DNA of 64,000 bases from assembly GCA_016190925.1 (NCBI GenBank), contig JACPPQ010000109.1, positions 1,614 through 65,613 of the forward strand. The letters run 5' to 3'. The stretch's first letter is position 1; every line of letters begins with the position of its first letter. Origin of the DNA: Chloroflexota bacterium (GTDB lineage Bacteria; Chloroflexota; Dehalococcoidia; Dehalococcoidales; JACPPQ01). The notes beneath the pieces were generated by a model. It made no database searches and was not told the DNA's origin. It saw only the letters and a program-made list of their open reading frames with translations. The position numbers and the translations under genes were made by a program. Below, piece after piece: positions 2,654-64,000 of this stretch.

Positions 2654-3169
2654 CTACCGCTGACTAAGGGGGACGCTCTTCAGGGTTGTTATACTTTGAT
2701 GTATTTTTCTCAGGCATTGTATCAATAGAAGGAGGTAGGCTACAGGAATAATCCAGAGGACGGTTGCGTTGGGAATATTGAGAAACGAGGGTTGGTAAAT
2801 ACCTCCACGCCAATGGTTCCAGGTGGTCTGGACGCCGTACCAGAAAATAATGCCGCAGATTACGACTCCGAGAAATGCATTAAAGATACCGAGCAGGAGC
2901 TGATAGTTTGGTTTTAAACGGAGAGGTAGCAGGTCCATCCTGACATGCTTTCCTTCCCTCATCAGCTTTGCTGCAGGTAACATCACCATGAAAAACAGTA
3001 GAATCTGGTTGATTTCTATTTGCCATCTTATTGGCCAGCCGAACATTCTGAGGATGACATCAATTCCGACAGTTAACATCGCAAAGGCAAGCAAAGCACT
3101 TGCGATAGTTACTGCGGTATTAAGTACCCGGTCGAAATTGGCTCTGATTTTGCTGGCTATCTCTGTCAT
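2654..3169 (-). CDS. dctQ: TRAP transporter small permease (DctQ family)
   Basis: This 171-aa ORF has about four hydrophobic segments and lies directly upstream of dctM. It is paralogous in size and position to 53483..54004. Confidence 0.8.
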   Translation of the reverse strand: MTEIASKIRANFDRVLNTAVTIASALLAFAMLTVGIDVILRMFGWPIRWQIEINQILLFFMVMLPAAKLMREGKHVRMDLLPLRLKPNYQLLLGIFNAFLGVVICGIIFWYGVQTTWNHWRGGIYQPSFLNIPNATVLWIIPVAYLLLLIQCLRKIHQSITTLKSVPLSQR

Positions 3170-3357
3170 ACCTTCCCTTGGGAAAAAGCTTTAGCGAATA
3201 GCGCGAGCTGCAGGGGATAGTCATTTGCCGTTATTAAGCTCCGAATGTCTGATAATGGACATCCCGGGGCTTATTGCGAATTGATAAACTGGTGGCGTTC
3301 CTGCGTATACCGGTTATCGGTTTACTCAGAAAAATGGTATTGATTAACCCTATCTCC

Positions 3358-3542
3358 TTTACGTTAAGTAAACGCTCTGCGCTCTTGGCGCAGGGTAAAA
3401 AAATACAGTTTTCCAAAAGGACGTCCGCCTCAGGTGGATGGCCGCACGTAGAGCTTGCCTGAGCCTGCCCTGAGAGAAGCCGAAGGGTACCTGATACGGG
3501 GGTCAATGCCCTGCCCGCCTCTGGCGGGCGGAATTGCTTTAC
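3358..3542 (+). repeat. Composite hairpin-mosaic repeat, copy 1 (ends in GGAATTGCTTTAC)
   Basis: This copy aligns by eye with 4904..5111, 33307..33484 and, for the 3' half only, 61244..61347. It contains the hairpins CTGCGC-n5-GCGCAG, CGTCCGCC-TCA-GGTGGATG and CCCGCC-TCT-GGCGGG. Confidence 0.85.
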
Positions 3543-3625
3543 GAGCTGTTTGAAAAGTAAAAAGATTTGTGACTTGCCCTCTTTATTTCCCTCTCTCGAA
3601 AACAGGAAGGGAGAGCATTTTTTCT

Positions 3626-3748
3626 GAAGAGGGGCGTAATCCCCTCTTCAACACCCCATATTCGGACAACCTCAAGAATTTTAGAAGAGGGTTTGCACCC
3701 CTCTGGACGCCTCGACTTTTCATTGTTCGTGTGTGCGCCTCAGGCGCA
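3626..3748. repeat. Further hairpin modules in the dctP-dctQ spacer
   Basis: GAAGAGGGG-cgtaat-CCCCTCTTC lies at 3626..3649. AGAGGG-n7-CCCTCT follows near 3686. TGCGCC-TCA-GGCGCA lies at 3734..3748, and its 20-mer GTGCGCCTCAGGCGCATGGA recurs at 54245..54264. Confidence 0.8.
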
Positions 3749-3755
3749 TGGATAA

Positions 3756-4799
3756 TTACTTTACAAAGAGTTGTCTTAGTTTGTCGTAAGTTTGCTGATT
3801 GACATTCTTCTTCAAGACCGCCCACCTTGATTCGTAGGCAAGATTAAGATACGATTTTGTATCTTCAGGGGAGAAGGTGATAGGCTGCATGCCTTTTTCC
3901 ACTATTGTTTTCTTCGCGGCTTTGGCCAGATTGTCCGGCCGTGAAGGGTCTGCCTCCAATTTTGCTGCCTCATTCACCAGTATGTCTTGCAAGTTCTTTG
4001 GGAGCTTATTGAATCGGTCCATGTTTATATAGGTCGATGTATTAGTGTAGTAGAATGGGTAGTCAATCCAGTATTTGACCACTTCATACCATTTGTTCTG
4101 CACTGTCAGGTCGTAGGTCATAACATAGCCGTCAATCAGTTTGGTTTGCAGGCTGGTGTAAATGTCACCAAAACCTACATTGAGGGGGGTGACGCTCAGG
4201 GCATTTAAGAACGGGGTATAAGTCGGCGTGGTGCGCATCTTTAGCCCGGCTAACTCTTTGGGAGTCTTTACCTGGGGATTCAGGAATATGGAGAACATGG
4301 CCTCGGTGTTAGTGGCAATCATCCCCAGCAAGTATACCTTTGCCCTCTCCTTGAAAAGGTCGCGGATATAGGCATACCCGCCGGCCTGCCGATTTTCCCA
4401 CGATTTATACGAGGAGATAGAAATGGCCAAAGTCTCCGGCACAACATATTCCCATTCATCGGTGAAGCTGAAGAGCATATCGATTGTACCGGAACGCACT
4501 GCCTCAGTCTGGTTTGCTCTGGGGATAGCCTCCGGCCCGCCGACGATGTCAATAACAAGCTGCCCGTTAGACGCTTTCTTGACATTATCAACAAAATCAT
4601 CGGCGCTGAGCATCGTCGCTGTATGGGCGGGCAAAACGGTTACCGCTTTCAGCACTATCGGAGCCGCGGTTGGCGCGGGCGCAGGTGCTGGTTTTGGCGT
4701 GGCCGTGGGTGCCGGAGCCGGGGTTCGTGTACAGCCTGCCAGAACAAGCACCGCTGCCAGCGCTAAGGTCAGAATCAGGATTACAGTTTTCATTTTCAT
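3756..4799 (-). CDS. dctP: TRAP substrate-binding lipoprotein (DctP family) with a Pro/Ala/Thr linker
   Basis: The track ORF is 3756..4811. I prefer the ATG at 4799 (M5) because GGAGGGG lies 5 nt upstream of it. The protein has a signal peptide with lipobox VLAGC followed by TPAPAPTATPKPAPAPAPTAAP. The mature domain is DctP-like. Confidence 0.85.
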   Translation of the reverse strand: MKMKTVILILTLALAAVLVLAGCTRTPAPAPTATPKPAPAPAPTAAPIVLKAVTVLPAHTATMLSADDFVDNVKKASNGQLVIDIVGGPEAIPRANQTEAVRSGTIDMLFSFTDEWEYVVPETLAISISSYKSWENRQAGGYAYIRDLFKERAKVYLLGMIATNTEAMFSIFLNPQVKTPKELAGLKMRTTPTYTPFLNALSVTPLNVGFGDIYTSLQTKLIDGYVMTYDLTVQNKWYEVVKYWIDYPFYYTNTSTYINMDRFNKLPKNLQDILVNEAAKLEADPSRPDNLAKAAKKTIVEKGMQPITFSPEDTKSYLNLAYESRWAVLKKNVNQQTYDKLRQLFVK

Positions 4800-4903
4800 T
4801 TTCCCCTCCATGGTAATGAATTACTATTTCAAGTTGGCGTTTGCTATTGATTTCCGAATATCCCACCTCCTCCGAACAAATCTAACTTTTTCCAAGGTTA
4901 TTG

Positions 4904-5111
4904 TTTACGAAGTAAACGCCCTGCGGTCTCTGCCGCAGGGTTAAAATATATAGGGTTTCCAAAGGGACGTCCGCCTCAGGCGGATGGCTTGCCTCCGCTG
5001 AAGCTTTAGCGCAAGCAGGCCGCACGCAGAGCTTGCCCCGTTCACAGTTTGCCCCGTACCTGATACGGGGGTCAACGCCCTGCCCGCCTCTGGCGGGCGG
5101 AATTGCTTTAC
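4904..5111 (+). repeat. Composite hairpin-mosaic repeat, copy 2
   Basis: Its hairpins are CCCTGCGG-n6-CCGCAGGG, CGTCCGCC-TCA-GGCGGATG, CCCCGTA-cctga-TACGGGG and CCCGCC-TCT-GGCGGG. It ends in GGAATTGCTTTAC, and its last bases overlap the stop codon of the minus-strand gene 5108..5380. Confidence 0.85.
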
Positions 5112-5380
5112 AGGTACTTCTCTACGGGATTGGGAAGTTTTTCCAGAATCTTGATTCTCATGGGTTCAGGTATGATAGATTCGTCATAATCCTTCACCCA
5201 TAAAACATCACCTTCAGGTAGTTTGGCCGGGTCCCTGGAGAATTGAGCTTTAACATATATCCGCTCCAGGGTTTTGTGGTCTTTTATTTCGACGTTATTA
5301 ATCTGGAATATCTGCCTGTTCTCAAAGTCTGCCGCCTTTCCGCTATCACGGATGTCTATCATAGTGGCTTCCCATTCCAT
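5108..5380 (-). CDS. Small Cys-free protein (90 aa), paralog of 6953..7216; candidate UbiD accessory subunit
   Basis: It lies immediately downstream of UbiD-2 on the same strand. It shares the block VKAQFSRDPAKLPEGDVLWVK with VKAILSSKPGELPGGDTLWIR in the other small ORF. I recognise no known family. Confidence 0.6.
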   Translation of the reverse strand: MEWEATMIDIRDSGKAADFENRQIFQINNVEIKDHKTLERIYVKAQFSRDPAKLPEGDVLWVKDYDESIIPEPMRIKILEKLPNPVEKYL

Positions 5381-5450: not shown

Positions 5451-6917
5451 TTATTTCAAACCGTACGAAGTCCAATTTTTCACTACTTTGTCCTGTAACT
5501 CTTTAGAATACATGGCTGCAAAGGTCACTTTGGGCGGTGCCGTAATTTCAAGCGGCCAGTCCAGAGGCCAGGTGGCGTCATAGACTATTTGTGGGCCTGT
5601 CTGGTCCATTCTTTCCTTCAAATCGGCGGAAGGTTGAAGCGGGCTGCCCTGCTGGTGATACACCCATATTCCCCGCTCCGGATGTACTTTTTCGACAAGG
5701 CTATTAATAACGTCATCTGTGTTAAAAACATCGGTATCTTCGTCACACACTAGAATTGCGTAGGAGTACAGGCCACCGGCAGCAGAGTATATAGCCGCTG
5801 CTACCCCCTGAGCCACCCTGGGTCTCCCTCTCTTGACGGACACTATGACCAGGTCAGCGACACCCGGATAGCAATGCACCTCTTTTACCGGCCAGCCAGC
5901 GTCAGTCAAAAGCTTTCGATAGAAAGCTGATTTTACAACAGGTGCGATTATGCCACCTTCGTCCCTGCCTCGGCCTACGCTGGCCATGGATAATATCGGG
6001 TTATTTCGCCAGGTTATGCACTTCACGACAAAAACGGGGCGCAGGTCTCTCGGCGAAGCCCTGAAGCCTGTATACTCGCCAAAGGGACCTTCGTACGCCC
6101 GCACATGCGGCGGAACTATACCTTCGATGACTATCTCGGAGGATGCGGGCACGTAAATGTCATTGGTTTCACATTTGACCAGTTCGAGAGGTTTCTTCCT
6201 CCAGCCTCCTACGGCATCAACCTCAGACATCTTTGCGGGAATGGGACTGGCCGCAGCAATGGCAGATAAGGGGTCGGGATTTATGGCAATGGCGCAGGGC
6301 ATTGGCTCGTTAGCATCCTCGTACTGTTGATAGAACATGTTGGGCCCGTGCTGTCCATAAACAAAAAGGCAACCCAGGCTTCTTCTATCGTGAATCATGT
6401 GCCGGTACATACCCCAGTTTACCCAATCACTATTCTTGTCCTTGGTAATGGTAGCGTGATAAGTGCACATATATCGGCCGCCATCGCCTTCATGTATCAT
6501 CGGCGCGGGAAAGGTATACAGGTTGCAATCATTTCCAAACGTTTTATTCTCTTTACAAGGGGCCTTCTTGACTACTACCGGTTTTATCGGATGTTCCAGC
6601 CCGGCAATATACAGGTCCTGTAGCTCCCGCCAGGTTGCCTTGTCAGGGTTCGGATGTCCAAAGATAATGGCCATGCGCTTCAGGTTACAGATGCTGGAGC
6701 TTATAATCGAATGACCGGGGTAGCCTTTAATGTTTTCAAAGAGCATAGCGGGTTGTCCACCGTGGTTGACGTTCTTTCCCTCACCGATTTCCAGGGCTCT
6801 GCGCGCAATGGCGCCAGCTTCCAGATTCCAGTCTACCTCTTTTTTTATCCTGGCAAGCTCTCCAGCCGCCTCCCAGTCAACTATCGCATCCCTGACGCTA
6901 TCGTGTGGGAATGGCAT
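5451..6917 (-). CDS. UbiD-family decarboxylase/carboxylase, paralog 2
   Basis: This 488-aa ORF has an AAGGAGAA ribosome-binding site. It carries the motifs DWVNWGMYRHM and EGPFGEYTGFRA, plus the typical N-terminal segment that contains GELARIKKEVDW. Confidence 0.9.
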   Translation of the reverse strand: MPFPHDSVRDAIVDWEAAGELARIKKEVDWNLEAGAIARRALEIGEGKNVNHGGQPAMLFENIKGYPGHSIISSSICNLKRMAIIFGHPNPDKATWRELQDLYIAGLEHPIKPVVVKKAPCKENKTFGNDCNLYTFPAPMIHEGDGGRYMCTYHATITKDKNSDWVNWGMYRHMIHDRRSLGCLFVYGQHGPNMFYQQYEDANEPMPCAIAINPDPLSAIAAASPIPAKMSEVDAVGGWRKKPLELVKCETNDIYVPASSEIVIEGIVPPHVRAYEGPFGEYTGFRASPRDLRPVFVVKCITWRNNPILSMASVGRGRDEGGIIAPVVKSAFYRKLLTDAGWPVKEVHCYPGVADLVIVSVKRGRPRVAQGVAAAIYSAAGGLYSYAILVCDEDTDVFNTDDVINSLVEKVHPERGIWVYHQQGSPLQPSADLKERMDQTGPQIVYDATWPLDWPLEITAPPKVTFAAMYSKELQDKVVKNWTSYGLK

Positions 6918-8770: not shown

Positions 8771-8909
8771 AAATTTGCCTTCGAGGTATATTACATCGAC
8801 TTTCTACTGCACGGCAAGCATTATTGTCTCAAAACCGGCATTTCGTTTAATAAAGCGATTCCAGGTGAAATCATTCATGACAGGCACACTTCATCTGATG
8901 TGAAAGTGG

Positions 8910-9017
8910 TGTAGGCAAAGTAAGGTGGGGAACAATGGTATTAACCCTACAATAATTTACGCCGATGTCTGGCAGATAATCAGTGGTCAAAGAGGTTACT
9001 TTAAGGTACTAAGCATT
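8910..9017 (+). promoter_or_regulatory. Conserved TGTAGG-box upstream element, copy b
   Basis: The sequence is TGTAGGCAAAGTAAGGTGGGGAACAATGGTATTAACCCTACAATAATTTACGCCGATGTCTGGCAGATAATCAGTGGTCAAAGAGGTTACTTTAAGGTACTAAGCATT. TGTAGG at 8910..8915 can pair with CCTACA at 8946..8951. Confidence 0.7.
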
Positions 9018-12426: not shown

Positions 12427-14037
12427 ATGGCATACTACAGGGACTTGAGAGAATACCTTAAAGTCCTGGAATCCAAAGGAAAGCTTGTCAGGATAAACCG
12501 GGAGATAAACAAGGATACCGAGCTTATGCCATTGGTCAGATGGCAATTTCGTGGGCTTCCAGAGGAGCAAAGGAAAGCCTTCATCTTCGATAATGTGAAA
12601 GATGCAAAGGGGAAAAAGTACGATATGCCGGTAGTGGTGGCCGCTCATGCTCCATCCAGAGAGGTCTACGCACTGGCCATGATGTGCGCGCCTGACAAGA
12701 TTATTGAGCGCTGGACGGAGGGCCAGCTTCATCCCATAGAACCTGTAGTGATAGAGAGCGGGCCAGTCCATGAGAATATTCATCAGGGTGACGAGCTTAT
12801 TACATGGGGTGGTCTGGGACACCTCCCGGTACCCATTTCAACGCCAGGATTCGATAACGCTCCTTATTTGACTTGCTCCAACTGGGTAAGCAAAGACCCG
12901 GACACTGGCATAAGGAACATGGGCATTTACCGGGGTATGTTGAAAAGCGCTACCAGGCTGGGGATACAGTGCGACCAGGGTAAGCATCTGCGCATACACT
13001 GGGAAAAGTGCCGGAACAAAGGGATTCCATTGCAGGTTGCGGTAGTTGTCGGGGCGAGCCCTAACCTGGGATTTGTTGGAGCGGCACATATACCGTACGG
13101 TGTGGATGAATTCGCAATCGCCGGTGGCCTCAGCGGAGAACCGATTAAGCTGGTAAAGTGCAAGACGGTGAACATCGAGGTCCCCGCTACGGCAGAGATA
13201 GTCATAGAGGGTGAAATGCCTACGGATTCTATGGAGAAAGAGGGACCCTTCGGAGAGTTCACCGGCTATATGGGAGCCGAGGGGGTCTACCCCTATTTCA
13301 ACGTCAAGTGCATTACGCATCGTAACGATGCAATTTACACGGCCTTTATCAGCCAATTTGCACCGAGCGAGAGCAGCAAGCTGAGGCAAATTTCCCAGGA
13401 AGGTGTCTGGTATAAGCTCCTGAAGCATGACTTGAATAATCCGGGCGTACTGAGATGTGCCTTTCACGAGAACGCCAGCGGGAGTTCCGCTGCCCTCCTT
13501 GTGATACAGCTCAAGAAAGCGCATCCCTTCGATGCATGGCATGCCCTGGACGGGGCGGCTGCCTTCACCCAGAGCTGGCCCAGGATAATAATAGCGGTTG
13601 ACGAAGACATCGACCCGGAGGATGCTGATTCGGTGAACTGGGCGCTCAGCTTCAGGATGGAACCACATAGAGATTTGCGCGTGGTTCAGGGGAAAGCCTA
13701 TAACCTGGACCAGGCGAGCAATCCGCCATGGACACCCCAGGCAGAAAGGTTTTACCCATCGCCGAACGGAAGCTCGGTCTTGTTGATAGATGCCACCAGA
13801 AAGTGGCCGTACCGGCCGGTTTCACTGCCCGCCAGGAAATTCATGGAAAGGGCAAAGCAAATCTGGGAAGAAGAAAAGCTTCCCAGGCTAATCCCACGGT
13901 CTCCCTGGTTTGGCTACTCACTGGGACAGTGGACTGATGAGAACAAGGAAGAGGCCGAGCTGGCCCTTAATGAAGAACACTACCAGACAGGCGAAAAGAT
14001 AGCCAGGCAAAGGACTCAGCTTGGCAACTCTGAATAA
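12427..14037 (+). CDS. UbiD-family decarboxylase/carboxylase, paralog 3 (long C-terminal tail)
   Basis: This 536-aa ORF has an AAGGAG ribosome-binding site. The N-terminus reads MAYYRDLREYLKVLESKGKL, and the motifs GIRNMGIYRGM and EGPFGEFTGYMG are present. Confidence 0.9.
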   Translation: MAYYRDLREYLKVLESKGKLVRINREINKDTELMPLVRWQFRGLPEEQRKAFIFDNVKDAKGKKYDMPVVVAAHAPSREVYALAMMCAPDKIIERWTEGQLHPIEPVVIESGPVHENIHQGDELITWGGLGHLPVPISTPGFDNAPYLTCSNWVSKDPDTGIRNMGIYRGMLKSATRLGIQCDQGKHLRIHWEKCRNKGIPLQVAVVVGASPNLGFVGAAHIPYGVDEFAIAGGLSGEPIKLVKCKTVNIEVPATAEIVIEGEMPTDSMEKEGPFGEFTGYMGAEGVYPYFNVKCITHRNDAIYTAFISQFAPSESSKLRQISQEGVWYKLLKHDLNNPGVLRCAFHENASGSSAALLVIQLKKAHPFDAWHALDGAAAFTQSWPRIIIAVDEDIDPEDADSVNWALSFRMEPHRDLRVVQGKAYNLDQASNPPWTPQAERFYPSPNGSSVLLIDATRKWPYRPVSLPARKFMERAKQIWEEEKLPRLIPRSPWFGYSLGQWTDENKEEAELALNEEHYQTGEKIARQRTQLGNSE

Positions 14038-14076
14038 CCAATAACCTGGACCCGACATTGTAATCCTTAAAATTGA

Positions 14077-14184
14077 TGTAGGCAAAGCAAGGTAGAAAAT
14101 AATAGTATTAGTCTTACATCAACTTACGCCGATGTCTGGTAGATAACGATAGTCAAAGAGATTAGTTTTAAGGTACTAAGCATT
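14077..14184 (+). promoter_or_regulatory. Conserved TGTAGG-box upstream element, copy c
   Basis: The sequence is TGTAGGCAAAGCAAGGTAGAAAATAATAGTATTAGTCTTACATCAACTTACGCCGATGTCTGGTAGATAACGATAGTCAAAGAGATTAGTTTTAAGGTACTAAGCATT. It is collinear with copy b up to the start codon of the next gene. Confidence 0.7.
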
Positions 14185-17845: not shown

Positions 17846-19699
17846 ATGCGTACGAAAAACAAAATCGACCCGGTAACCTTCGAGATTCTGAGACATAGGG
17901 TTGGCGCCATTAATGATGAGGGTGCTTCCAGCTTAATGTTAGTTTCGGGGTCACCGGTGGCCAGTGAGGTTCTCGACTTTAATACCGCCTTACTTAATGC
18001 CAAAGGAGAGGTAATCGTCATCGGCCCGTACATTCTGGAGCACGGTATCTCTCTGGAGCAAATTGTAAAGTACATTATCGCTAATTATCAGGATAACCCG
18101 GGAATTAATGAAGGCGACATGTTCTTGTGCAACGACCCGTATGTGGGAGCTCTCCATCAGAATGATGTCGCCCTGGTGGCGCCGATTTACTGGGAGGGGG
18201 AGCTAGTAGGTTGGACGGGGGTTGCGGTGCATCAGCAGGATGTTGGAGGGCCTGGCAAAGGACAGGTAAGCATAGGCGCAACTTCTATTTTTGAAGAGGC
18301 ACCTGTATTCCCACCCATTAAGCTTATAGAGAGAGGAATTATCCGAAAAGACCTTGAAGGAGAGTACTTCAAACGAAGCAGATTACCAGAGCGCCTCGGG
18401 CTGGACTTGAGGGCTATGACTGCTTCAAACAACGTTACGAGCAGACGTATTAGAGAACTTATTAAAGACCGAGGAATAGAAACCGTAAAATCGACATTCG
18501 ATGCCATCATAGATTATGTTGAAGTCAAGTTAAGAAGCAGATTAATGGAACTCCCTGATGGGACCTGGCGCCATACCGCTTACCTGGATTACGGAGACAA
18601 GATTTACCCCTGTAAGTTAACCATGACCAAGAAGAAAGACAAGCTAGTTTTTGACTTTACTGGGACAGCCGCCCAGGCGCCCGCCGTTATTAATTGCACT
18701 TATCCTGTCTTGCAGGCTATTGTCACGGGAGTTTTTATGATGTACCTGGGATACGGCATATTCCCGCCGAGTTCTGGAGCAGCAGGCAGGTGTCTTGAGG
18801 TAGTTTCTGAACCCGGTACGTTTGTCCATGCGATATGGCCAGCAGGTGTGAGTAAGGCGACCACTGGTGCAAGGTATTCCGTAATCGATGCCGGAAGTGT
18901 TTGTTTAGCTAAAATGCTGGCTGCCAGTGACAAGTACCGGGACCGCGTAATGGCTCCGTGGAGGAGCTCATCTATAATAGCGGACTTATTTGGTATCGAC
19001 CAGAGGGGTGCTTACTTTGGGGCCTCAATCCTGGACTTTATGGCGGGTGGCGCCGGTGCAAGGAGCTATAAAGATGGCATCGACACCGGAGGTCAACTGG
19101 GTGCTCCGGCAATCGCCATCGCTAACGTAGAAACGCACGAGTTCCGCTACCCGATGCTTTTTTTGTACCGGAAACAAGAAAGGGATACAGGCGGGCCTGG
19201 CAAATTCAGGGGAGGAGTGGCACTGGGGTATATGTGGATGCCCCATGACGTAGAGGAAATCTCCAATGCGGTTATTCACGCCATCGGTCTGCAATCGCCC
19301 AATGGTGTAGGTATTTATGGAGGTTATCCCAGCAGTACCCATGTAGTCTCCCTCAAAAGAAATACCAATATACTGGATATCTTCAGGGATGGGAAGCTAC
19401 CGGCAAGCCTGGATGAAATTGACGGCAAATTTGAGATACCTCCTCAACTTGTAGAAACATCTCTTAAGAAGAACGACATAATTGTGGGCCTGGGACAGGG
19501 GGGAGGTGGCTATGGAGACCCAATCGAGCGCGATGCCAGGTTAGTTGCCAACGATGTAACGAATGAGTTAGTTTCCAGAGAATGTGCCAGGGATATTTAT
19601 GGGGTAGTGCTCGACCCTCAAACACTCCAGCCAGACATAAAACAGACTGAGGAACGGAGGCTTGAAATAAAGAGGGAAAGGGCGGGGTGGCAAAAGTAG
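17846..19699 (+). CDS. Hydantoinase B/oxoprolinase family subunit (HyuB; carboxylase alpha-like)
   Basis: This 617-aa ORF starts 3 nt after HyuA. The N-terminus DPVTFEILRHRVGAINDEG is typical of HyuB. Confidence 0.9.
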   Translation: MRTKNKIDPVTFEILRHRVGAINDEGASSLMLVSGSPVASEVLDFNTALLNAKGEVIVIGPYILEHGISLEQIVKYIIANYQDNPGINEGDMFLCNDPYVGALHQNDVALVAPIYWEGELVGWTGVAVHQQDVGGPGKGQVSIGATSIFEEAPVFPPIKLIERGIIRKDLEGEYFKRSRLPERLGLDLRAMTASNNVTSRRIRELIKDRGIETVKSTFDAIIDYVEVKLRSRLMELPDGTWRHTAYLDYGDKIYPCKLTMTKKKDKLVFDFTGTAAQAPAVINCTYPVLQAIVTGVFMMYLGYGIFPPSSGAAGRCLEVVSEPGTFVHAIWPAGVSKATTGARYSVIDAGSVCLAKMLAASDKYRDRVMAPWRSSSIIADLFGIDQRGAYFGASILDFMAGGAGARSYKDGIDTGGQLGAPAIAIANVETHEFRYPMLFLYRKQERDTGGPGKFRGGVALGYMWMPHDVEEISNAVIHAIGLQSPNGVGIYGGYPSSTHVVSLKRNTNILDIFRDGKLPASLDEIDGKFEIPPQLVETSLKKNDIIVGLGQGGGGYGDPIERDARLVANDVTNELVSRECARDIYGVVLDPQTLQPDIKQTEERRLEIKRERAGWQK

Positions 19700-20709: not shown

Positions 20710-22146
20710 GTGGGCACGGAATACAGGGACTTGAGGGAATGGCTCTCGAAAGTCGAGGAAATTGGAGAGCTCAGGCGGGGCAAATCCCTTACCGTAGAAG
20801 AAGACGCCGGCAGGGTAGCGGAGATATTGCCCGCCCTGGAAAACGGACCGGCGGTTATTCTGGATGAGTTAGTAGGGTACGAGCCCGGTTACCGAATCCT
20901 GCTTAATCTCTTCGGCAGCACTCGCAGGATAGCCCTGTCATTTGGATTTCCTATTGACTCGGATAGAAAATCGCTGCTTCAGCACTTTGAAAAGAAACTC
21001 GAAAAGATCGAGCTTATAAAACCAGCCTATGTCGAAACAGGCCCCATATTAGAAAACCGGCTGGTAGGGGATGATGTGAATCTTGACCGGTTTCCTGTTC
21101 CTCTGTGGCATAAGCACGATGGAGGTCCCTACATTGGAACAGGATGCGCGGTGGTTACGCAAGACCCTGACGACGGTTGGGTTAATTTGGGGACCTACAG
21201 AAACCAGCTCTTCGATAAGAAAACGGTGGGATTCTATATCACTTCGGCGGGGCAGGGAAGGGTTCATCGGGAAAAGTACTTCAGTCGCGGAAAACCATGC
21301 CCGGTGGCCGTTGTTTTCGGGATGGACCCTTTGCTATTTACCGGGGGTATGACTGACATTCCTCCAGGCATCTGTGAATATGATTGGGTCGGAGGTTGGC
21401 AAGGCAGGCCGGTGCAGGTTATCAAGGGACCTGTAACCGGTCTTCCGGTTCCTGCTAATGCTGAAATTGTAATCGAAGGTTTCTCTTATCCGGGAAAAAA
21501 CCGGCTCGAAGGCCCTTTCGGTGAGTCGAGGGGATATTATGCATCAGGCGCAAGCGAAGCACCTTACATCGAAGCTCAGGCCCTTTACTTCAGGAATGAA
21601 CCTATTCTTCTGGGAATGCCGTCCCAAAAACCGCCCTACGATGCAGACAAAGCTAGGCAGTATATGAAATCTGCGCTACTGAAACAACAGTTGAAGCAGT
21701 TCGGTATCCCGGGAATAACGGATGTATGGTGCTATGGAGAAGGTAGCTGCAGGCTTTTTGTGGTAGTCGCTATAAAGCAGCAGTATCCCGGACATTCCCG
21801 ACAGGCAGGTCATGCGGTTTATGCCAGCCGCGTAATCACTTACGGGCGCTATGTAATAGTGGTCGATGACGATATCGATGTTGCCGATATCAAAGATGTG
21901 CTGTGGGCTATTACAACCCGTTCTAGCCCGGCAACCTCGGTAGACATCATACACAAAGCGAGGTCATTTCAGTTAGACCCGCTAATCTCGCCTGAGGACC
22001 GGGCGGCAGGCCGATATTATGATTCTCGCGCCATCATCGATGCCACAAAGCCATTCGAATGGAAAGACCAGTTTCCTTTACCCGTACAGACAGACCAGGA
22101 GTACAGGCGGGAAACCAGAAAAAAGTTTGATTATCTTTTTAAATAG
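20710..22146 (+). CDS. UbiD-family decarboxylase/carboxylase, paralog 4
   Basis: This 478-aa ORF has a GTG start 2 nt after the previous stop. The motifs DDGWVNLGTYRNQ and EGPFGESRGYYASG are present. It is a close paralog of 59000..60439. Confidence 0.9.
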   Translation: MGTEYRDLREWLSKVEEIGELRRGKSLTVEEDAGRVAEILPALENGPAVILDELVGYEPGYRILLNLFGSTRRIALSFGFPIDSDRKSLLQHFEKKLEKIELIKPAYVETGPILENRLVGDDVNLDRFPVPLWHKHDGGPYIGTGCAVVTQDPDDGWVNLGTYRNQLFDKKTVGFYITSAGQGRVHREKYFSRGKPCPVAVVFGMDPLLFTGGMTDIPPGICEYDWVGGWQGRPVQVIKGPVTGLPVPANAEIVIEGFSYPGKNRLEGPFGESRGYYASGASEAPYIEAQALYFRNEPILLGMPSQKPPYDADKARQYMKSALLKQQLKQFGIPGITDVWCYGEGSCRLFVVVAIKQQYPGHSRQAGHAVYASRVITYGRYVIVVDDDIDVADIKDVLWAITTRSSPATSVDIIHKARSFQLDPLISPEDRAAGRYYDSRAIIDATKPFEWKDQFPLPVQTDQEYRRETRKKFDYLFK

Positions 22147-32821: not shown

Positions 32822-33286
32822 CTATATCTCTATATGCAGGCCTTTGCCTATCTTCATGCAAACGAAAGCTTCGGTATCTCTCAATCCCTTGATTTTCACT
32901 GTCTCTCTATGCAAAAAGTCAGCAAGTTCATCAGCTGAACGAAATGCAGCAAATACCATGATATCAAAGCGTCCTGTGGTGCTTGAAATCCAGGCTACCT
33001 GCTGGTAGCTGGCCAGTTGTCTGACTGCTGCTTCAACCTTGTCCTGTTCTACGTCAAAAGCCAGCATAGTCAGAAAAGGAAATCCCGCTTTATAAGGGTC
33101 GACCAGGGCGGCTATCCGCAGTATTTGGCTTTCGGTTAATCTCTTCATCCGGCGTCTGACTGTAGACGGACTAATGCTGAGTTGCTTTGCCAGTGTTTCA
33201 CTTGACTGTTGGGGGTCGGTTCTTAATAGAGAGATAATCTGCCGGTCAACGGAATCCAACGGCTCTTCGTCGTTTCTCTTTCTCAT
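32822..33286 (-). CDS. Lrp/AsnC-family transcriptional regulator
   Basis: This 154-aa ORF has an N-terminal HTH (LDSVDRQIISLLRTDPQQSSETLAKQLSISPSTVRRRMKRL) followed by an AsnC-type ligand-binding domain. It is divergent from the 33876 operon. Confidence 0.85.
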   Translation of the reverse strand: MRKRNDEEPLDSVDRQIISLLRTDPQQSSETLAKQLSISPSTVRRRMKRLTESQILRIAALVDPYKAGFPFLTMLAFDVEQDKVEAAVRQLASYQQVAWISSTTGRFDIMVFAAFRSADELADFLHRETVKIKGLRDTEAFVCMKIGKGLHIEI

Positions 33287-33306: not shown

Positions 33307-33484
33307 TTTACGTTAAGTAAACGCCCTGCGCCAAGAGCGCAGGGTAAAAAATATACAGGGTTTCCAAAGGGACGTCCGCCTCAGGCGGATGGCCGCACGC
33401 AGAGCTTGCCCCGTTCACAGCCTGCCCCGTACCTGATACGGGGGTCAATGCCCTGCCCGCCTCTGGCGGGCGGAATTGCTTTAC
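33307..33484 (+). repeat. Composite hairpin-mosaic repeat, copy 3
   Basis: Its hairpins are CCCTGCGC-caaga-GCGCAGGG, CGTCCGCC-TCA-GGCGGATG, CCCCGTA-cctga-TACGGGG and CCCGCC-TCT-GGCGGG, ending in GGAATTGCTTTAC. By eye it is almost identical to copy 2 over the 3' part. Confidence 0.85.
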
Positions 33485-33815: not shown

Positions 33816-33845
33816 TTGACATGCCTTAAAACGCCATGCTATAAT
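33816..33845 (+). promoter_or_regulatory. Near-consensus sigma-70-type promoter for the 33876 operon
   Basis: TTGACA at 33816..33821 is followed by an 18-nt spacer and TATAAT at 33840..33845. It lies 30 nt upstream of the ATG at 33876, in an AT-rich stretch. Confidence 0.6.
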
Positions 33846-49584: not shown

Positions 49585-49672
49585 TCTCCCTTTCGCAAAG
49601 GGAGATTGTGAGGGATTTTCCACGGGTAGGTTGAGGGATTTCAAGTTCCCTACATCCTCTATTCGGAAAGGG
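49585..49672. repeat. Hairpin module TCTCCCTTT-cgc-AAAGGGAGA followed by a duplicated GAGGGATTT motif
   Basis: The 9-bp stem spans 49585..49605. TGTGAGGGATTTTC and TTGAGGGATTTC follow it. The same module type (CCCCCTTT-cgc-AAAGGGGG + GGGGATT x2) occurs at 61035..61068. Confidence 0.75.
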
Positions 49673-54004: not shown

Positions 54005-54187
54005 AGAAATTCAAAACCCCATGAATGCACCACTGAATATGAGAGGCATTTCATCGTAAACAACCGCAGGCACAGCCCGCGACACCTTTGCCCTTCGGGC
54101 ACGGCCTGAGCTCCACAATATGGCCGGTTCACCCTGCTGTTACCGTAACGTTCAAGACTTACGTTTTCTCACGAAAATACATTTAGT

Positions 54188-54425
54188 GGTGGCACTCGCC
54201 TCAGGCGAGTGCCTGCCTGTGCAAGAAACATTTTCATACTTCGTGGTGCGCCTCAGGCGCATGGAGGATTACCAAGAAAATAGCCTTTGTCACCCCTGCG
54301 AAGGCAGGGGTCTACCGCCGCCGTCGAGGCGGCATCCCGATGTCCATCGGGACTAATTAACCTGTCCTTCCTAAGGGAAGGAATTGCCTCGACGGCAATG
54401 GATAGATTCCCGCTTTCGCGGGAAT
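54188..54425. repeat. Array of eight consecutive, non-identical GC-rich hairpins in the dctP-dctQ spacer
   Basis: The stems lie at 54191..54213 (10 bp, TCA loop), 54247..54261, 54293..54310, 54317..54333, 54335..54352, 54365..54382, 54383..54399 and 54406..54425. I checked each base by base. Confidence 0.85.
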
Positions 54426-54485
54426 GACAGTTATTTGTTGTTGCTATTTTCATCCTTCGTGGGTGGTGTAACGCGCTATGGGTAA

Positions 54486-58999: not shown

Positions 59000-60439
59000 C
59001 TATGTCTTAAACAGGTGCGCAAATCTTTTCCAGCTTTCTCTTCTATACTCCTGGTCTGATTGAACAGGCATGGGGAATTTATCTTTCCACTCGAAGGGCA
59101 TGGTAGCATCGATAATAGCGCGGGAATTCATGTACCGTCCTGCCGTGCGGTCTTCGGGAGAGACCAGGGCATCCAGGGCGCTTGTCCTCGCCCTGCGAAT
59201 GATGTCGACAGAAGTGGCCGGGTCACACCGGGTTAATACCGCCCACAGTACATCCTTCAGGTCCGTGACATCAATGTCTTCATCGACCACTACCACTAAT
59301 TTGCCGACGTTCGACCCTGTGATAGCGTACACCGCGTGTCCCACCTGCCTCGAATGGCCGCCGAACTGCTGTTTGATGGCTACCGCGGTCAGGAGTTTGC
59401 AGGCCCCCTCTCCGTAGCACCAGATATTGCTTATCCCTTGAATGCCGGTCTGCTTCAACTCGTTGAAAACGAGCGCGGATTCGATATATTGCCGCGCCTT
59501 ATCCGCATCATACGGTGGTTTTTCAGATGGCACTCCCAGCAGGATAGGGTCATTGCGGAAATAGACCGCCTCTACATCCACATAAGGAGCTTCACCGCTA
59601 CCGGAGGCATAATACCCCATCCACTCGCCAAACGGACCTTCCAGCCTGGTCTTTCCCGGATAAGAGAAGCCTTCTATCGCTATCTCGGCGGCTGCTGGTA
59701 TTGGAAGTCCGGTCACAGGCCCCTTTATCACTTTCACAGGACTGCCGCGCCATCCTCCGACCCAGTCCAGTTCGCTCACACCCCACGGCAGGTCGGTCAT
59801 TCCTCCTGCGAACAGAAGCGGGTCGCTTCCAAACACGATAGCTACTGGACACGGCTTTCCTTTGGCAATATACTTCTGCCGATGTGCGTAACCATGCGGC
59901 ACACGGGAGCTGAAGAAACCCACAGTCTTCTTGTCCAGAAGTTGGTTCCTGTAAGTGCCTACGTTGACCCATCCTTCATCCGGGTCTCGTGTTATTACCA
60001 TGCATCCCGTGCCGATGTAAGGCCCTCCATCCTGGCGGTGCCACATGGGGACAGGAAAGCGGTTCAAGTCTACTTGGTTTCCGGTGAGCTGGTTCTCAAA
60101 TATGGGGCCGGTATCAACGTATTCTGGGGGAATTAATTTCAGCCCCGCTAGCTTCTTCTTGAAATGCTCCAGCAAGGACTTCCGGTCTGAAACTAGGGGA
60201 AAGCCGAACGTGATAGCTATCTGGCGGATACTGCCATACGGGTTAATCAGAATGCGGTAGCCGGGCTCGAAACCGGGGAATTCGTCCAGGACAATAGACG
60301 GTGCGGTTTCCATGCTGGCGGCAATTTCAGCAATTCTGCCTGTATCTTCTTTCAGGTCTATCGATTTGGCTATCTTTAGTTCGCCGATTTCTTCAACCTT
60401 TGCTAACCACTGCCGCAAGTCTTCATAGTCTACTCCCAT
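59000..60439 (-). CDS. UbiD-family decarboxylase/carboxylase, paralog 5
   Basis: This 479-aa ORF contains DEGWVNVGTYRNQ and EGPFGEWMGYYASG. It is collinear with paralog 4 from the first residue (MGVDYEDLRQWLAKVEEIGEL versus MGTEYRDLREWLSKVEEIGEL). Confidence 0.9.
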   Translation of the reverse strand: MGVDYEDLRQWLAKVEEIGELKIAKSIDLKEDTGRIAEIAASMETAPSIVLDEFPGFEPGYRILINPYGSIRQIAITFGFPLVSDRKSLLEHFKKKLAGLKLIPPEYVDTGPIFENQLTGNQVDLNRFPVPMWHRQDGGPYIGTGCMVITRDPDEGWVNVGTYRNQLLDKKTVGFFSSRVPHGYAHRQKYIAKGKPCPVAIVFGSDPLLFAGGMTDLPWGVSELDWVGGWRGSPVKVIKGPVTGLPIPAAAEIAIEGFSYPGKTRLEGPFGEWMGYYASGSGEAPYVDVEAVYFRNDPILLGVPSEKPPYDADKARQYIESALVFNELKQTGIQGISNIWCYGEGACKLLTAVAIKQQFGGHSRQVGHAVYAITGSNVGKLVVVVDEDIDVTDLKDVLWAVLTRCDPATSVDIIRRARTSALDALVSPEDRTAGRYMNSRAIIDATMPFEWKDKFPMPVQSDQEYRRESWKRFAHLFKT

Positions 60440-60640: not shown

Positions 60641-60886
60641 GTTGGCTTATGGAAAGGGGAGTTGCAACAGGCACAAATTAAATTTTGCTAGAAAACACTC
60701 AGCATGACAGCGTTGGTGACTGATTACAACCTCGATTATGAAGTTATTGACAATTACCAAGCAAACATGGTTATATAACTTACACTGCCCGGCAAATTTC
60801 CTGCGGACAAGGATAAAAGGACCTGCACCGTGTTAGTACTTAGTTGCAATATTGAGCGTAATGATGTTTTGGTGTTTCGTACATCT

Positions 60887-61347
60887 GGTGGCACTCGCCT
60901 CAGGCGAGTCCCTTTAGGGAGAACCCTTCAGGGTGAACCCTGCCTGTGCACCTTGACTAACAATTACGCTGATTCATGCAACTTAGCACTAGTGTGCCGT
61001 ATCAGAAATACGTTGACTAAATATTTTGTCATTTCCCCCTTTCGCAAAGGGGGATTAAGGGGGATTCTGAACCTGTCCGACAGAAAATTCCTCTCAGTCT
61101 CCCTTTCGTAGAGGGAGAGAACTTATTCAAGTTACTTGCGAGACAGGATACTAGGATGGTGAATCGCAAATAACGTTAGCCCGGCATTCACCCATTACTT
61201 CGAAAATACCCAAATTTCCTCTCCCTTGAGAAGGAGAGGATTAAAGCTTGCCCAAGCCTGCCCGCCGTAGCCTTGTGCGTTGGCAGGAGCGAAGCCGAAG
61301 GGTACTTGTTACGGGGGGCAATGCCCTGTGGTGCGGAATTGCTTTAC
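60887..61347. repeat. Mosaic of hairpin modules filling the divergent UbiD-5 / UbiD-6 intergenic region
   Basis: GGTGGCACTCGCCTCAGGCGAGT at 60887 is the same 23-mer as at 54188. Other modules are CCCCCTTT-cgc-AAAGGGGG (61035..61053), TCTCCCT-n7-AGGGAGA (61098..61118) and CCTCTCC-n8-GGAGAGG (61218..61239). The 3' half of the composite repeat spans 61244..61347. Confidence 0.8.
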
Positions 61348-61410
61348 TTTTCGGACAGCTTCCTGGATGACAGCAAATTCCTAACCTACCAAAATCTGAA
61401 GGAGTGAACG

Positions 61411-62844
61411 TTGGCATATAAAGACTTGCGGGAATTCATGGCTTTACTGGAAAAGAGGAGACTTCTGGTTAGAGTTAAGTCAGAAGTGGACCCTTCCTGG
61501 GAAATCAACGGCGTTACCAGGAGGCTTCAAGAGGTAGGCGGACCGGCAGTGCTTTTTGAAAATGTAGGAGGGCACCAGGTCCCTGTTCTTTCCGAGCTTG
61601 TTGGAACGCCGGAGCGCCTGGCTTTAGCCCTGGGGATGGACTCTTCCACAACTGAAAAGCAAATCACAGAGGAGTGGGTCCGGCGGATTGAACATCCTGT
61701 TCCACCAAGGTTGGTAAGCACTGGTCCATGTAAAGAGAACATCCTGAAAGGTATTAAAGCTGACCTGAATGCGGTATTCCCGCCTGTAATCTGGCACAAA
61801 GGAGATGGCGGACCGTTTATCGGTGTTCTTGGCCTGCAAGTCACCAGGGACCCGGAGACCGGGGTACAGAACACAGGTATTTACCGCCAGATGGTCAGGA
61901 GCAAGAATGAGACCGGCCTTTATATGCCGGCCTACCAGCACGGCGGCCAGCACTTGCAAAAATGGGCGCGATTATATCCCGGCAAGCCCATGCCTCTAGC
62001 CGTTGTCCTTGGGCCGGAACCTTGTTACCTGCTTGCCGCCGGTGCCAAATTTCATCATCCGCCTGGAGAGGATGTCTATACGGGTGCTCTGAGACAGGAG
62101 CCATTGGAGCTGGTCAGGTGCGAGACCTGCGACATCGAGGTGCCTGCCACGGCTGAAATCATTCTGGAAGGTGAGGTCTATCCCGAAGAGTTCAAGACGG
62201 ATGGCCCATTTGGAGAGTACACCGGTTTCCTCGGCGGAGAACAAGAATTCAACGTCTTCCATTTGAAAGCTATAACCCATCGCAATAATCCTATCTTCCA
62301 GGGTACCCGGGAAGGCGCTCCACGCGGCAAGGGCTGGGTAGAAAGCGGCCTCCTGTGGATTAAGGGAGAAGAATACCAGTTATATAAGGAGCTTAAGAAG
62401 ATTAACGGGGTGATAGATGTTTGTGTGCCACTGTGGTGCAGCGGTTTCCACGCGGTGGTCTCAATCAGGAAGTTGAGGGCCGGACAACCTTTTCAAATTA
62501 TCCAGAGAATTTTCGGAGATGAAGAATTCGGCTCGCTCATAAAACATGTAATAGTGGTCGATGAAAACATCGATGTCCGCAATCCAAAAGAAGTTGAATG
62601 GGCCGTAGCCAACCTCGTCCAGGGTGACAGGGATATATTGGTAGTTCCCAGGTGTCCCGGCGAAGGACTGGATACCTCTCAACCTTATTCTAAACGTTTC
62701 TGGACGTCAAAGGTTGGCATTGATGCAACCGTACCGACTTACGAATATCAGGCTGAAGGACGGACGCCGCCACCCACATGTCTTGACCCGGACATCGTGG
62801 CCAGGGTAATCGCGCAGTGGGATAAATACGGGATAAATATATAG
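61411..62844 (+). CDS. UbiD-family decarboxylase/carboxylase, paralog 6
   Basis: This 477-aa ORF has a TTG start after AAGGAG, supported by alignment with paralog 7 (MAYKDLREF...). The motifs GVQNTGIYRQM and DGPFGEYTGFLG are present. Confidence 0.9.
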   Translation: MAYKDLREFMALLEKRRLLVRVKSEVDPSWEINGVTRRLQEVGGPAVLFENVGGHQVPVLSELVGTPERLALALGMDSSTTEKQITEEWVRRIEHPVPPRLVSTGPCKENILKGIKADLNAVFPPVIWHKGDGGPFIGVLGLQVTRDPETGVQNTGIYRQMVRSKNETGLYMPAYQHGGQHLQKWARLYPGKPMPLAVVLGPEPCYLLAAGAKFHHPPGEDVYTGALRQEPLELVRCETCDIEVPATAEIILEGEVYPEEFKTDGPFGEYTGFLGGEQEFNVFHLKAITHRNNPIFQGTREGAPRGKGWVESGLLWIKGEEYQLYKELKKINGVIDVCVPLWCSGFHAVVSIRKLRAGQPFQIIQRIFGDEEFGSLIKHVIVVDENIDVRNPKEVEWAVANLVQGDRDILVVPRCPGEGLDTSQPYSKRFWTSKVGIDATVPTYEYQAEGRTPPPTCLDPDIVARVIAQWDKYGINI

Positions 62845-63150: not shown

Positions 63151-63314
63151 CTCTTAGGGTGAGGGTAATATTCTTCCAAATTAGTGCCACAAAAAGACAT
63201 CTATTTTGGACAAGCGTAATTTGGAGATTCGGAATTTATTTTGATTTTCAAAGAGCTATTCAAAGCTTTGTCCAGGCGATAAATATACACCATTCTTAAA
63301 GATGGGGAAAAACT

Positions 63315-64000
63315 ATGGCATATAAAGATTTAAGAGAATTCATAGCTCTGCTGGAACAGAAAGGCCACCTGGTCAGGGTGAAGGCTGAGGTGAACCCGTC
63401 ATGGGAGATAAATGGCATCACCAATAAACTTACCAGGGAAAACGGCCCGGCAGTGCTTTTTGAAAATGCAGGAGGGCACAAAGTCCCCGTTCTTTCCGAG
63501 CTGCTGGGAAGGTCCCAGAGACGATATGCACTGGCGTTGGGTCTTGATACGGATGATGTGAGAGTAATAAGAGACGAATGGCTGAAGAGGATTAACCATC
63601 CCATAACCCCGAGATTAGTAAAGACCGGCCCGTGCAAGGAGAATATCCTCACAGGTGACAGGGCTGACCTGAACGCTATCTTCCCTCCGGTGCTCTGGCA
63701 CAAAGGCGATGGCGCACCGTTTGTTGGTACACAGGGCCTTCAGGTGACCAGGGACCCGGAAACGGGAGTCCAGAACACCGGTGTTTACCGGCAAATGGTG
63801 TTCTCTAAGAACGAGACCAGCCTCATGATGCAGCCCTTCCAGCACGGAGCGCAGCATCTTCAGAAATGGGTGCGCCTGTACCCCGGCAAGCCGATGCCTG
63901 TGGCGGTTGTCATCGGCCCTGAACCATGCTACCTTATAACGGCTGGTGGAAAGTTCTCACACCCGCCGAGCGAAGACGCCTACGCGGGAGGGCTGAGGCA
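63315..64000 (+). CDS. UbiD-family decarboxylase/carboxylase, paralog 7; runs off the right edge
   Basis: This ORF is absent from the ORF track because the window edge truncates it. My translation from the ATG at 63315 gives MAYKDLREFIALLEQKGHLVRVKAEVNPSWEINGITNKL...GVQNTGVYRQM... About two-thirds of residues match paralog 6 by eye. Confidence 0.85.
   Translation, partial: MAYKDLREFIALLEQKGHLVRVKAEVNPSWEINGITNKLTRENGPAVLFENAGGHKVPVLSELLGRSQRRYALALGLDTDDVRVIRDEWLKRINHPITPRLVKTGPCKENILTGDRADLNAIFPPVLWHKGDGAPFVGTQGLQVTRDPETGVQNTGVYRQMVFSKNETSLMMQPFQHGAQHLQKWVRLYPGKPMPVAVVIGPEPCYLITAGGKFSHPPSEDAYAGGLR

Follow-up and report, generated by a model that had tools for sequence, protein, structure and literature searches.

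What kind of sequence is the hairpin-rich repeat of 178 to 208 nt that recurs between the genes of contig JACPPQ010000109.1, from the Chloroflexota assembly GCA_016190925.1: a structured RNA, a repeat maintained by its host, or a piece of mobile DNA? The repeat was first described in a 64-kb stretch of this contig (hereafter the window, to which all positions without a contig name refer) by an initial annotation, which took it for a composite of four hairpins with compensatory stem changes and likened it to mosaics of repetitive extragenic palindromes (REP), to bacterial interspersed mosaic elements (BIME) or to miniature inverted-repeat transposable elements (MITE). The general class, a hairpin mosaic of REP/BIME or MITE type, proved right. 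We find that the repeat belongs to a family with fixed ends, that a compact form of it occurs in metagenomes, and that the copies of the window carry additional hairpins inserted into the compact core. Most likely the element is a small piece of parasitic mobile DNA, of a kind already familiar, rather than a new functional RNA. As to how it moves, we tentatively favor a lineage-specific, non-autonomous miniature element that is moved in trans, as single-stranded DNA, by an HUH enzyme, a reading that we hold to be possible rather than probable.

The repeat family and its ends

MAFFT, BLASTN, nhmmer, and a covariance model (filters off) recover exactly the four loci that had been proposed and no others in the 64 kb: copy 1 (3358-3542, 185 nt), copy 2 (4904-5111, 208 nt), copy 3 (33307-33484, 178 nt), and copy 4 (61245-61347), the first three being full copies and the last a 3' part only. 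All are intergenic and lie on the + strand. The similarity among them is far above chance (BLASTN E = 1e-9 to 1e-43), with copies 2 and 3 matching at 97% over 94 nt (E = 1e-42) and copies 1 and 3 over 56 nt at 100% and 104 nt at 88%. No degenerate or further copy was found in the window by the covariance-model search, which did not pick up the hairpin cluster at 54290-54430 as a relative.

That the repeat might extend beyond its contig was borne out by 12 related copies of a compact form of ~117 nt, which lie at unrelated intergenic sites on contigs of three metagenome samples and share 88-98% mutual identity. Eleven real copies on 10 contigs of JGI metagenomes (nine contigs of Ga0105105 and one of Ga0124853) were found by scanning collections with the pattern GCCCTG-N(4-25)-GCGGAATTGCTTTAC, which fixed the 3' TTTAC. 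The twelfth (L028:18670-18786, 147 bits), on a 92-kb contig of the third sample, was found without the 3' pattern and has the same ends. Contig L021 holds a tandem pair of compact copies with 24 nt between them. The compact sequence reads TTTAC GTAAGTAAAC G-CCCTGCGC-tcttg-GCGCAGGG-T AATAAAATAGGGTTT CCAAAGGGAC-gaa-GTCCCTTGG CCGCACGCAGGG-tcaatg-CCCTGCGGTGCGG AATTGCTTTAC, that is, TTTAC and GTAAGTAAAC, hairpin 1 (CCCTGCGC/GCGCAGGG), an A-rich spacer, hairpin 2 (CCAAAGGGAC/GTCCCTTGG), hairpin 3 (CCGCACGCAGGG/CCCTGCGGTGCGG, with one extra base in most copies), and AATTGCTTTAC.

Conservation runs exactly from TTTAC to TTTAC (left end TTTAC-GTAAGTAAACGCCCTGCGC, right end GCGGAATTGCTTTAC), and the base preceding the 5' TTTAC is variable. 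The fixed 3' terminus GGAATTGCTTTAC of the initial annotation is present, and the 5' end, TTTAC-G(T)TAAGTAAAC, is as invariant. Alignments of 11-15 copies contain no terminal inverted repeats, since the left end, GTAAGTAAACGCC, and the right end read inward, GTAAAGCAATTCC, have only GTAA in common. The foot of hairpin 1 lies 10-11 nt from the 5' TTTAC and that of hairpin 3 is separated from the 3' end by 11 nt. The palindrome of hairpin 3 is imperfect, its extra-helical base varying between copies (G, T, C, A or none). An integron attC site (RYYYAAC...GTTRRRY) was considered and rejected, as the ends read GTAAAC... and ...GCTTTAC and the window holds no integrase or cassette array.

Searches of other collections returned no real copy. 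GTDB species genomes gave seven matches to the 3' pattern, each in an unrelated taxon, where ~6 are expected by estimate; viral contigs matched the left-end pattern once, by chance, and the right-end pattern not at all; plasmids and phages gave no match by blastn in distant mode; and the terminal sequences turned up only primer coincidences in a literature search. A concatenated six-frame translation of the element, compared with a set of 5.8 billion proteins, revealed no spurious open reading frames (ORFs) over other copies. Judged by Rfam and the sequence collections and literature searched, the family is genuine and has not been cataloged before.

The host of the compact form has CetZ-like tubulin genes, two of which lie on L028 (14034-15209 and 18893-20065) and have Haloferax CetZ1 and CetZ2 as their best PDB matches. 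CetZ is usually regarded as archaeal. An archaeal host was nevertheless rejected, because DnaX and YbaB adjoin the same CetZ-like gene in sister contigs, so that the host appears to be a bacterium.

Growth by added hairpins

When aligned to the compact form, the window copies resolve into the compact core plus added, self-contained hairpin modules. What had been taken for a single unit of four hairpins is instead a core of three, of which hairpins 2 and 3 are interrupted or replaced by these modules. Block (i), GTCCGCC-tca-GGCGGAT, stands in hairpin 2 in place of its loop and the greater part of its 3' arm. Block (ii), of 39-48 nt, interrupts hairpin 3 in the 5' arm, after GCAG and before GGG, and accounts for the two central variants that had been noted correctly, CCCCGTAcctgaTACGGGG in copies 2 and 3 and GAAGCCGAAGGGTAC in copies 1 and 4. 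Block (iii), the hairpin CCCGCC-tct-GGCGGG, lies inside the 3' arm of hairpin 3, and block (iv), present in copy 2 only, consists of 32 nt in which the neighboring GCTTGCC is repeated directly and inverted.

The number of modules is zero in the compact form, at least one in copy 4, three in copies 1 and 3, and four in copy 2. Copy 4 is an intermediate between the compact and the composite forms, and the copies form a stepwise series from the compact form through copy 4 and copies 1 and 3 to copy 2. Because copies 1-3 share blocks (i)-(iii), the composite form itself was copied in this genome.

Tests for a structured RNA

The stem differences between copies had been read as compensatory. Pairs were counted in a hand-drawn three-hairpin structure over 15 copies and 500 shuffles, and in this larger alignment the stems show no covariation beyond that of the shuffles. 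Paired cells make up 90.4% of the stems versus 89.4% in the shuffles, 21 of which score at least as high. Three pairs differ on both sides, and 85 of the 500 shuffles yield at least as many; hairpin 1 contains none of the three, and the partial copy 4 or the replaced hairpin 2 is involved in some of them. A clear compensatory change is seen only in hairpin 1 of copy 2 (4919-4940), where GCGG/CCGC stands in place of GCGC/GCGC; this swap was read from the sequences, and its cells are scored as unpaired in the alignment. The variants described for hairpin 1 (CTCTGCGC/GCGCAGGG, CCCTGCGG/CCGCAGGG, and CCCTGCGC/GCGCAGGG) are present. The hairpin GTCCGCC-TCA-GGCGGAT exists as well, with GGTGG in copy 1, but the wobble pairs do not mark the + strand as the folded one: the stem mismatches comprise 8 G·T and 9 A·C, and since the G·T count is matched by A·C, neither strand can be named as the folded one. 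In copy 3 and in the metagenome copy of L009 the loop of hairpin 1 is flipped (CAAGA vs TCTTG), which points to inversion of the palindrome at the DNA level and not to selection on the loop.

These results bear on the proposal that the copies are structured small-RNA genes, for example orphan omega-RNA-like scaffolds of IS200/IS605-TnpB elements that are read into the 3' flank and whose insertions are expansion segments. Such genes would fit with the strictly invariant 3' end, the folding energies of the + strand, which lie below those of shuffles (z -2.3 to -3.5), and the placing of the inserted modules, which leaves the basal helix of hairpin 3 able to form (CCGC...GCGG and GCAG...CTGC are both still available in the composites), as expansion segments of functional RNAs do. 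The - strand folds about equally well, however (copy 3: z -3.2 on the + strand and -2.5 on the - strand). Rfam 15 gave 0 window matches at gathering score and only noise at E up to 10 for compact and composite copies, a promoter scan of copies 1-3 found no promoter-like site inside them, and neither the window nor the fetched loci contain a tnpB or iscB gene. The orientation relative to adjoining genes is mixed across loci, with compact copies in all orientations. The lack of covariation, of any strand sign and of an Rfam match, together with the mixed orientation, speaks against conservation as an RNA gene or as a cis-regulatory RNA; RNA genes we regard as very unlikely. The same results argue that the copies are young, largely neutral mobile DNA.

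We give a slimmer chance still to the element being more than selfish DNA, namely a structured nucleic-acid scaffold that gathers "expansion" hairpins while keeping its basal helices and termini, either as an orphan guide-RNA-like gene of a TnpB/IscB-type nuclease or through an active process in the Chloroflexi lineage that builds or inserts hairpins. An unrelated repeat of the window has received a comparable insertion of two hairpins (54187 vs 60886, described below).

Proposed mode of mobility

In the reading that we tentatively favor, a Y1 transposase of the HUH class (IS200/IS605 TnpA or RAYT-like, RAYT being the REP-associated tyrosine transposase), encoded elsewhere in the genome, would act in trans on the element. 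It would recognize the subterminal hairpins, excise the element as single-stranded DNA, and re-insert it 3' of a (T)TTAC target. In the Chloroflexi genome of the window, the form that was amplified had first gained small hairpin modules inside hairpins 2 and 3. The reference for the single-strand mechanism is IS608, which inserts 3' of a TTAC that itself lies outside the element, is cleaved at its right end within its own sequence, 10 nt from the foot of the hairpin, and has hairpin-to-end distances of 19 and 10 nt; at each end the guide is a set of four bases, located 5' of the foot, that pair with the cleavage site (C1-G2, C2-G1) (PMC3201880).

Every complete copy is preceded by (T)TTAC, and TTTAC also terminates the element. 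At the left end, the AACG found 5' of the foot of hairpin 1 forms three of three pairs with TTAC (T·A, T·A, C·G), as does the AAAG of IS608, and by our own estimate a fit of this kind has a chance of ~1 in 32 to 1 in 64. The IS608 rule is said to include a pair at the fourth position as well (C4-G4), reportedly from Barabas et al. in 2008. The four window copies share one orientation, even against the local gene strand. Taking the - strand as the active one was rejected, because the IS608 rule then holds at neither end and what would be the target flank shows no conservation. The 5' pentamer is variant in four copies (ATTAC, GTTAC, and TTTAT twice), all of which retain the 3' TTTAC, in a search whose pattern fixed the 3' end; a variant 5' and a constant 3' pentamer are expected if the former is target DNA and the latter the element's own.

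A number of observations weigh against this mechanism. The right-end guide fails the IS608 rule, with TTGG of the compact form making one of three pairs with TTAC and ATGG of the window copies two of three, and hairpins 1 and 3 share only a 7-nt core (CCCTGCG/CGCAGGG) whose arms are in opposite order. The element is not filed in the IS200/IS605 family, because two of the defining features were tested and did not hold. The four variant 5' pentamers are no more than expected from the ~5-7% divergence of the family, and TTTAC on both sides equally fits a 5-bp target duplication. The shared orientation is weak evidence (n = 4), because GC skew follows gene orientation and gives no direction of replication in the window. 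The window copies multiplied despite a destroyed hairpin 2 and an interrupted hairpin 3, which sits poorly with strict hairpin recognition. The element is linked to no transposase, and Pfam scans of ~50 ORFs of the window identify none of any kind, in agreement with the initial annotation, which saw no RAYT or IS200-type enzyme there; tblastn of the window with IS200, IS608, and RAYT queries gave no match.

A clean empty site was not recovered in three attempts. The spacer of L008, which is filled, has diverged too far from that of L028 for a clean alignment; the homology of L020 with L032 and L029 ends at the stop codon; and at the CetZ locus, two sister contigs from JGI sample 3300075153 have upstream spacers of 335-338 nt where L028 has 435 nt (18458-18892), spacers which, being shorter by ~100 nt, are consistent with an empty site. 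L023, the nearest relative of the mutase locus (89% identical protein), is not syntenic upstream and so gives no empty site either.

In favor of the single-strand mechanism, metagenome contigs tied to the host of the compact form do encode Y1 transposases. Two identical copies of a 590-nt IS200-type element with a 142-aa Y1 transposase lie at L030:2890-3480 and L031:2890-3480 (the latter equal to L029:1370-1960, -); its ends are GTCATAAAGAGCC... and ...GGGGGGTAAGTCAC(T), and its right end obeys the IS608 rule (GAAG with TCAC). As a parent of the repeat it was rejected, its ends and positions being unrelated, which is a further point against the single-strand mechanism.

The TTTAC that flanks every complete copy on both sides, and the GTAA with which both ends begin when read inward, would also fit a cut-and-paste MITE that is mobilized by a DDE transposase, with a 5-bp (TTTAC) or 4-bp (TTAC) target duplication and degenerate inverted repeats. 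A gene that could supply such an enzyme (L009:3127-4353) lies 1.2 kb from the compact copy of that contig and encodes an IS256-family (Mutator-type) transposase, as judged from its sequence motifs and from its annotation in the source, "putative transposase." A relation to the repeat is improbable: the candidacy of this transposase as parent was dropped because ends and positions do not correspond, and IS256 elements make 8-9-bp duplications and have long inverted repeats. A DDE origin is further opposed by the absence of a real terminal inverted repeat, by a specificity for TTTAC that is unusually strict for DDE elements, and by a 5' pentamer that varies while the 3' one is constant, an observation biased by the search pattern. 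We consider it distinctly unlikely.

Free-standing hairpins and hairpin-rich spacers

One of the modules is found outside the element too, as a free hairpin, in the window as well as in the host of the compact form. The hairpin GTGCGCCTCAGGCGCATGG at 3733-3759 (+) is of the same family as the element module GTCCGCCTCAGGCGGATGG, from which it differs by a compensatory C-G to G-C swap, and it has a second copy at 54246-54272 and a near-identical free copy at position 8922 of L028 (8915-8945). Related hairpins, GGCACTCGCCTCAGGCGAGTGCC, lie at 54187-54214 and 60886-60913; the latter, which extends to 60950, differs from its twin by a 29-nt insertion made of two mini-hairpins. The family has the core CGCC-TCA-GGCG with compensatory outer stems (GTGCGCC.., GTCCGCC.., CACTCGCC..), and its TCA loop is on the + strand in six of seven cases. 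A second family, TCTCCCTTTC-GC/GT/AC-AAAGGGAGA, is found at 49585-49605, 61034-61054, and 61098-61118, and again at L030:3500-3520, beside the IS200-type element. Since L028 carries the near-identical free GTCCGCCTCAAGCGGATGG hairpin and L030 the window's TCTCCCTTTC-N-CAAAGGGAGA hairpin, the shared hairpins suggest that the host lineage of the compact form is related to that of the window; the tie of L030 to this host is indirect, through an IS200-type element common with a contig that bears a ~90%-identical gene.

In the window, the density of perfect hairpins (stem of 7 bp or more) is ~8-fold higher between genes than within coding DNA (22 in ~8.5 kb vs 16 in 55.5 kb; 20 in a shuffled window). 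Both TRAP (tripartite ATP-independent periplasmic) transporter operons, which read dctP-dctQ-dctM on the - strand, have a hairpin-packed spacer of 480-590 nt precisely between dctP and dctQ, at 3170-3755, where it holds copy 1, and at 54005-54485. In transporter operons of E. coli, REP elements stabilize the upstream mRNA at this position, and by analogy the spacer may set the expression ratio of DctP to DctQM.

This hairpin enrichment, the filled dctP-dctQ spacers, the free-standing GT-S-CGCCTCAGGCG-S-ATGG and TCTCCCTTTCGCAAAGGGAGA hairpins of the window, L028, and L030 with their compensatory stem swaps, and the terminator-like scores at both ends of the element fit a repeat of REP/BIME type that is maintained by the host. 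Here small palindromes would be spread or kept by a domesticated RAYT and retained because they stabilize or terminate transcripts, for instance by raising dctP over dctQM. The element itself departs from such repeats in its core of 117 nt, in which three hairpins form a fixed unit between defined ends, and which is not a single palindrome of 20-40 nt or an inverted REP pair. No RAYT came out of the Pfam and tblastn searches of the window described above, the orientation relative to genes is mixed, with copy 1 antisense to the dct operon, and the T tracts after the hairpins are poor. We therefore consider a host-maintained repeat unlikely.

Genomic context and possible effects

Copy 1 lies between dctQ (2654-3169, -) and dctP (3756-4811, -). 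It begins with TTTAC (3358-3362), a linker GTTAAGTAAACG (3363-3374), and hairpin 1 with one T·G pair (3375-3395), followed by a relic of the 5' arm of hairpin 2 (3413-3422), the REP-like module GTCCGCCTCAGGTGGATG (3423-3440), the 5' arm of hairpin 3 (3441-3451), module ii (3452-3499, GAAGCCGAAGGGTAC variant), the apex of hairpin 3 (3499-3513), the inserted module iii CCCGCCTCTGGCGGG (3514-3528), and the tail GCGGAATTGCTTTAC to 3542. Copy 2 has the layout of copy 3 plus the fourth insertion at 4987-5018 (GCTTGCC...GCAAGCAG), and its final four bases overlap the stop codon of a 90-aa ORF (5108-5380, -). Copy 3, the cleanest of the composites, contains hairpin 1 at 33324-33344, the REP-like module at 33374-33391, module ii at 33403-33441 (CCCCGTAcctgaTACGGGG), and module iii at 33456-33470. 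Its 5' TTTAC is 20 nt from the start codon of a divergent AsnC-type regulator gene (32822-33286, -), and the perfect sigma-70-like promoter of the mutase gene (33816-33845) is well outside it. Copy 4 consists of module ii in the GAAGCCGAAGGGTAC variant with extra sequence, the apex of hairpin 3, the 3' arm GGTGCGG, and AATTGCTTTAC; this arm is of the compact type, without module iii, and unrelated hairpins stand in place of the left half of the copy.

By their scores, the two ends of the element are weak terminator-like sites. The hairpins with their T-rich ends resemble weak bidirectional terminators, whose local effects would probably be incidental, although the copy between dctP and dctQ may protect the upstream mRNA in the manner of REP elements. 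In practical terms, the element can mislead gene callers, as reading frames cross it and it supplies the stop codon of ORF 5108-5380, and it marks intergenic sites of possibly altered transcription or mRNA stability, such as the dctP-dctQ spacer and the 5' region of the AsnC-type gene.

The Pfam scans assign only metabolic, transport, and regulatory genes to the window, including five of the UbiD family, three TRAP systems, one Tct system, three aldehyde:ferredoxin oxidoreductases, and an acyl-CoA mutase. The UbiD-family decarboxylase genes, at least five in 64 kb (5451-6917, 12427-14037, 20710-22146, 59000-60439, and 61411-62844), are accompanied by these oxidoreductases and the mutase and by hydantoinase A/B and several FMN reductases, and 61407-61895 is similar to 63311-63799. 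The region looks like an island for anaerobic degradation of aromatic compounds or organic acids. A 77-nt repeat of 81% identity (8903-8979 and 14070-14146) precedes two genes for solute-binding proteins, a TctC-like gene (9095) and a dctP gene (14257), and may be a shared promoter or operator region. The intergenic region 811-1323 holds a 25-nt direct repeat, GTTGACATAACTC..., at 1149-1173 and 1258-1282 (spacing 109 nt).

Among the metagenome contigs, ~450 nt downstream of a short-chain dehydrogenase/reductase gene are conserved at 87-90% between L008:855-1300 (-) and L028:10810-11266. This region contains a promoter-like TTGACA, a 14-codon ORF (MKVQELLGVRQVDS) after a Shine-Dalgarno site, and a textbook terminator (GGTGGAGGCCGC-A8-GCGGCCTCCAC-T7). 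It has no Rfam match and may represent either an attenuator with a leader peptide or a small RNA not described before.

Comparison with known systems

The family adds a new small repeat to those of uncultured Chloroflexi-like bacteria, and the series from the compact form to copy 2 displays a repeat growing stepwise by hairpin addition. Its closest counterparts in form are the palindrome-associated transposable elements (PATEs), non-autonomous derivatives of IS200/IS605 elements such as IS608 and ISDra2. In common with these, the element is small, lacks an ORF and terminal inverted repeats, has imperfect subterminal hairpins ~10 nt from its ends, and has a conserved (T)TTAC directly 5' of its left end, the same TTAC as the IS608 target, with a guide-like tetranucleotide at this end that fits the IS608 rule. 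It differs from them in the misfit of the right-end guide, in its end hairpins, which are unlike each other (alike in IS608), in ending with that pentamer too, as a target duplication would have it, in its third, central hairpin, in the interrupted end hairpins of the window copies, and in the lack of any cognate TnpA among the genes found. Should the single-strand HUH mechanism be true, PATE-type elements would extend to this lineage, and the system would be one that targets TTAC with two ends unlike the IS608 model.

With the REP and BIME elements of Proteobacteria, whose RAYT is also called TnpA-REP, the element shares an intergenic location, a hairpin-based, mosaic and modular build, and a site between the genes of the binding protein and of the membrane components of a transporter operon. 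In size and shape only the small added modules and the free hairpins (~19-27 nt, flanks GT...ATGG) are REP-like. The element as a whole has a fixed multi-hairpin core of 117 nt in place of single REPs alternating in orientation, no GTAG/GTGG head, and no RAYT was seen with it.

The presence or absence of internal modules between copies, the intergenic location, and the terminator- or promoter-like ends recall the BOX elements of pneumococci and the Correia elements of Neisseria. Clear terminal inverted repeats and TA duplications mark the Correia and RUP elements, and the modules of BOX are tandem sub-repeats, whereas the modules added here are independent hairpins inside existing stems. The element is familiar and unsurprising in kind, a small hairpin-based non-autonomous element with modular variants.

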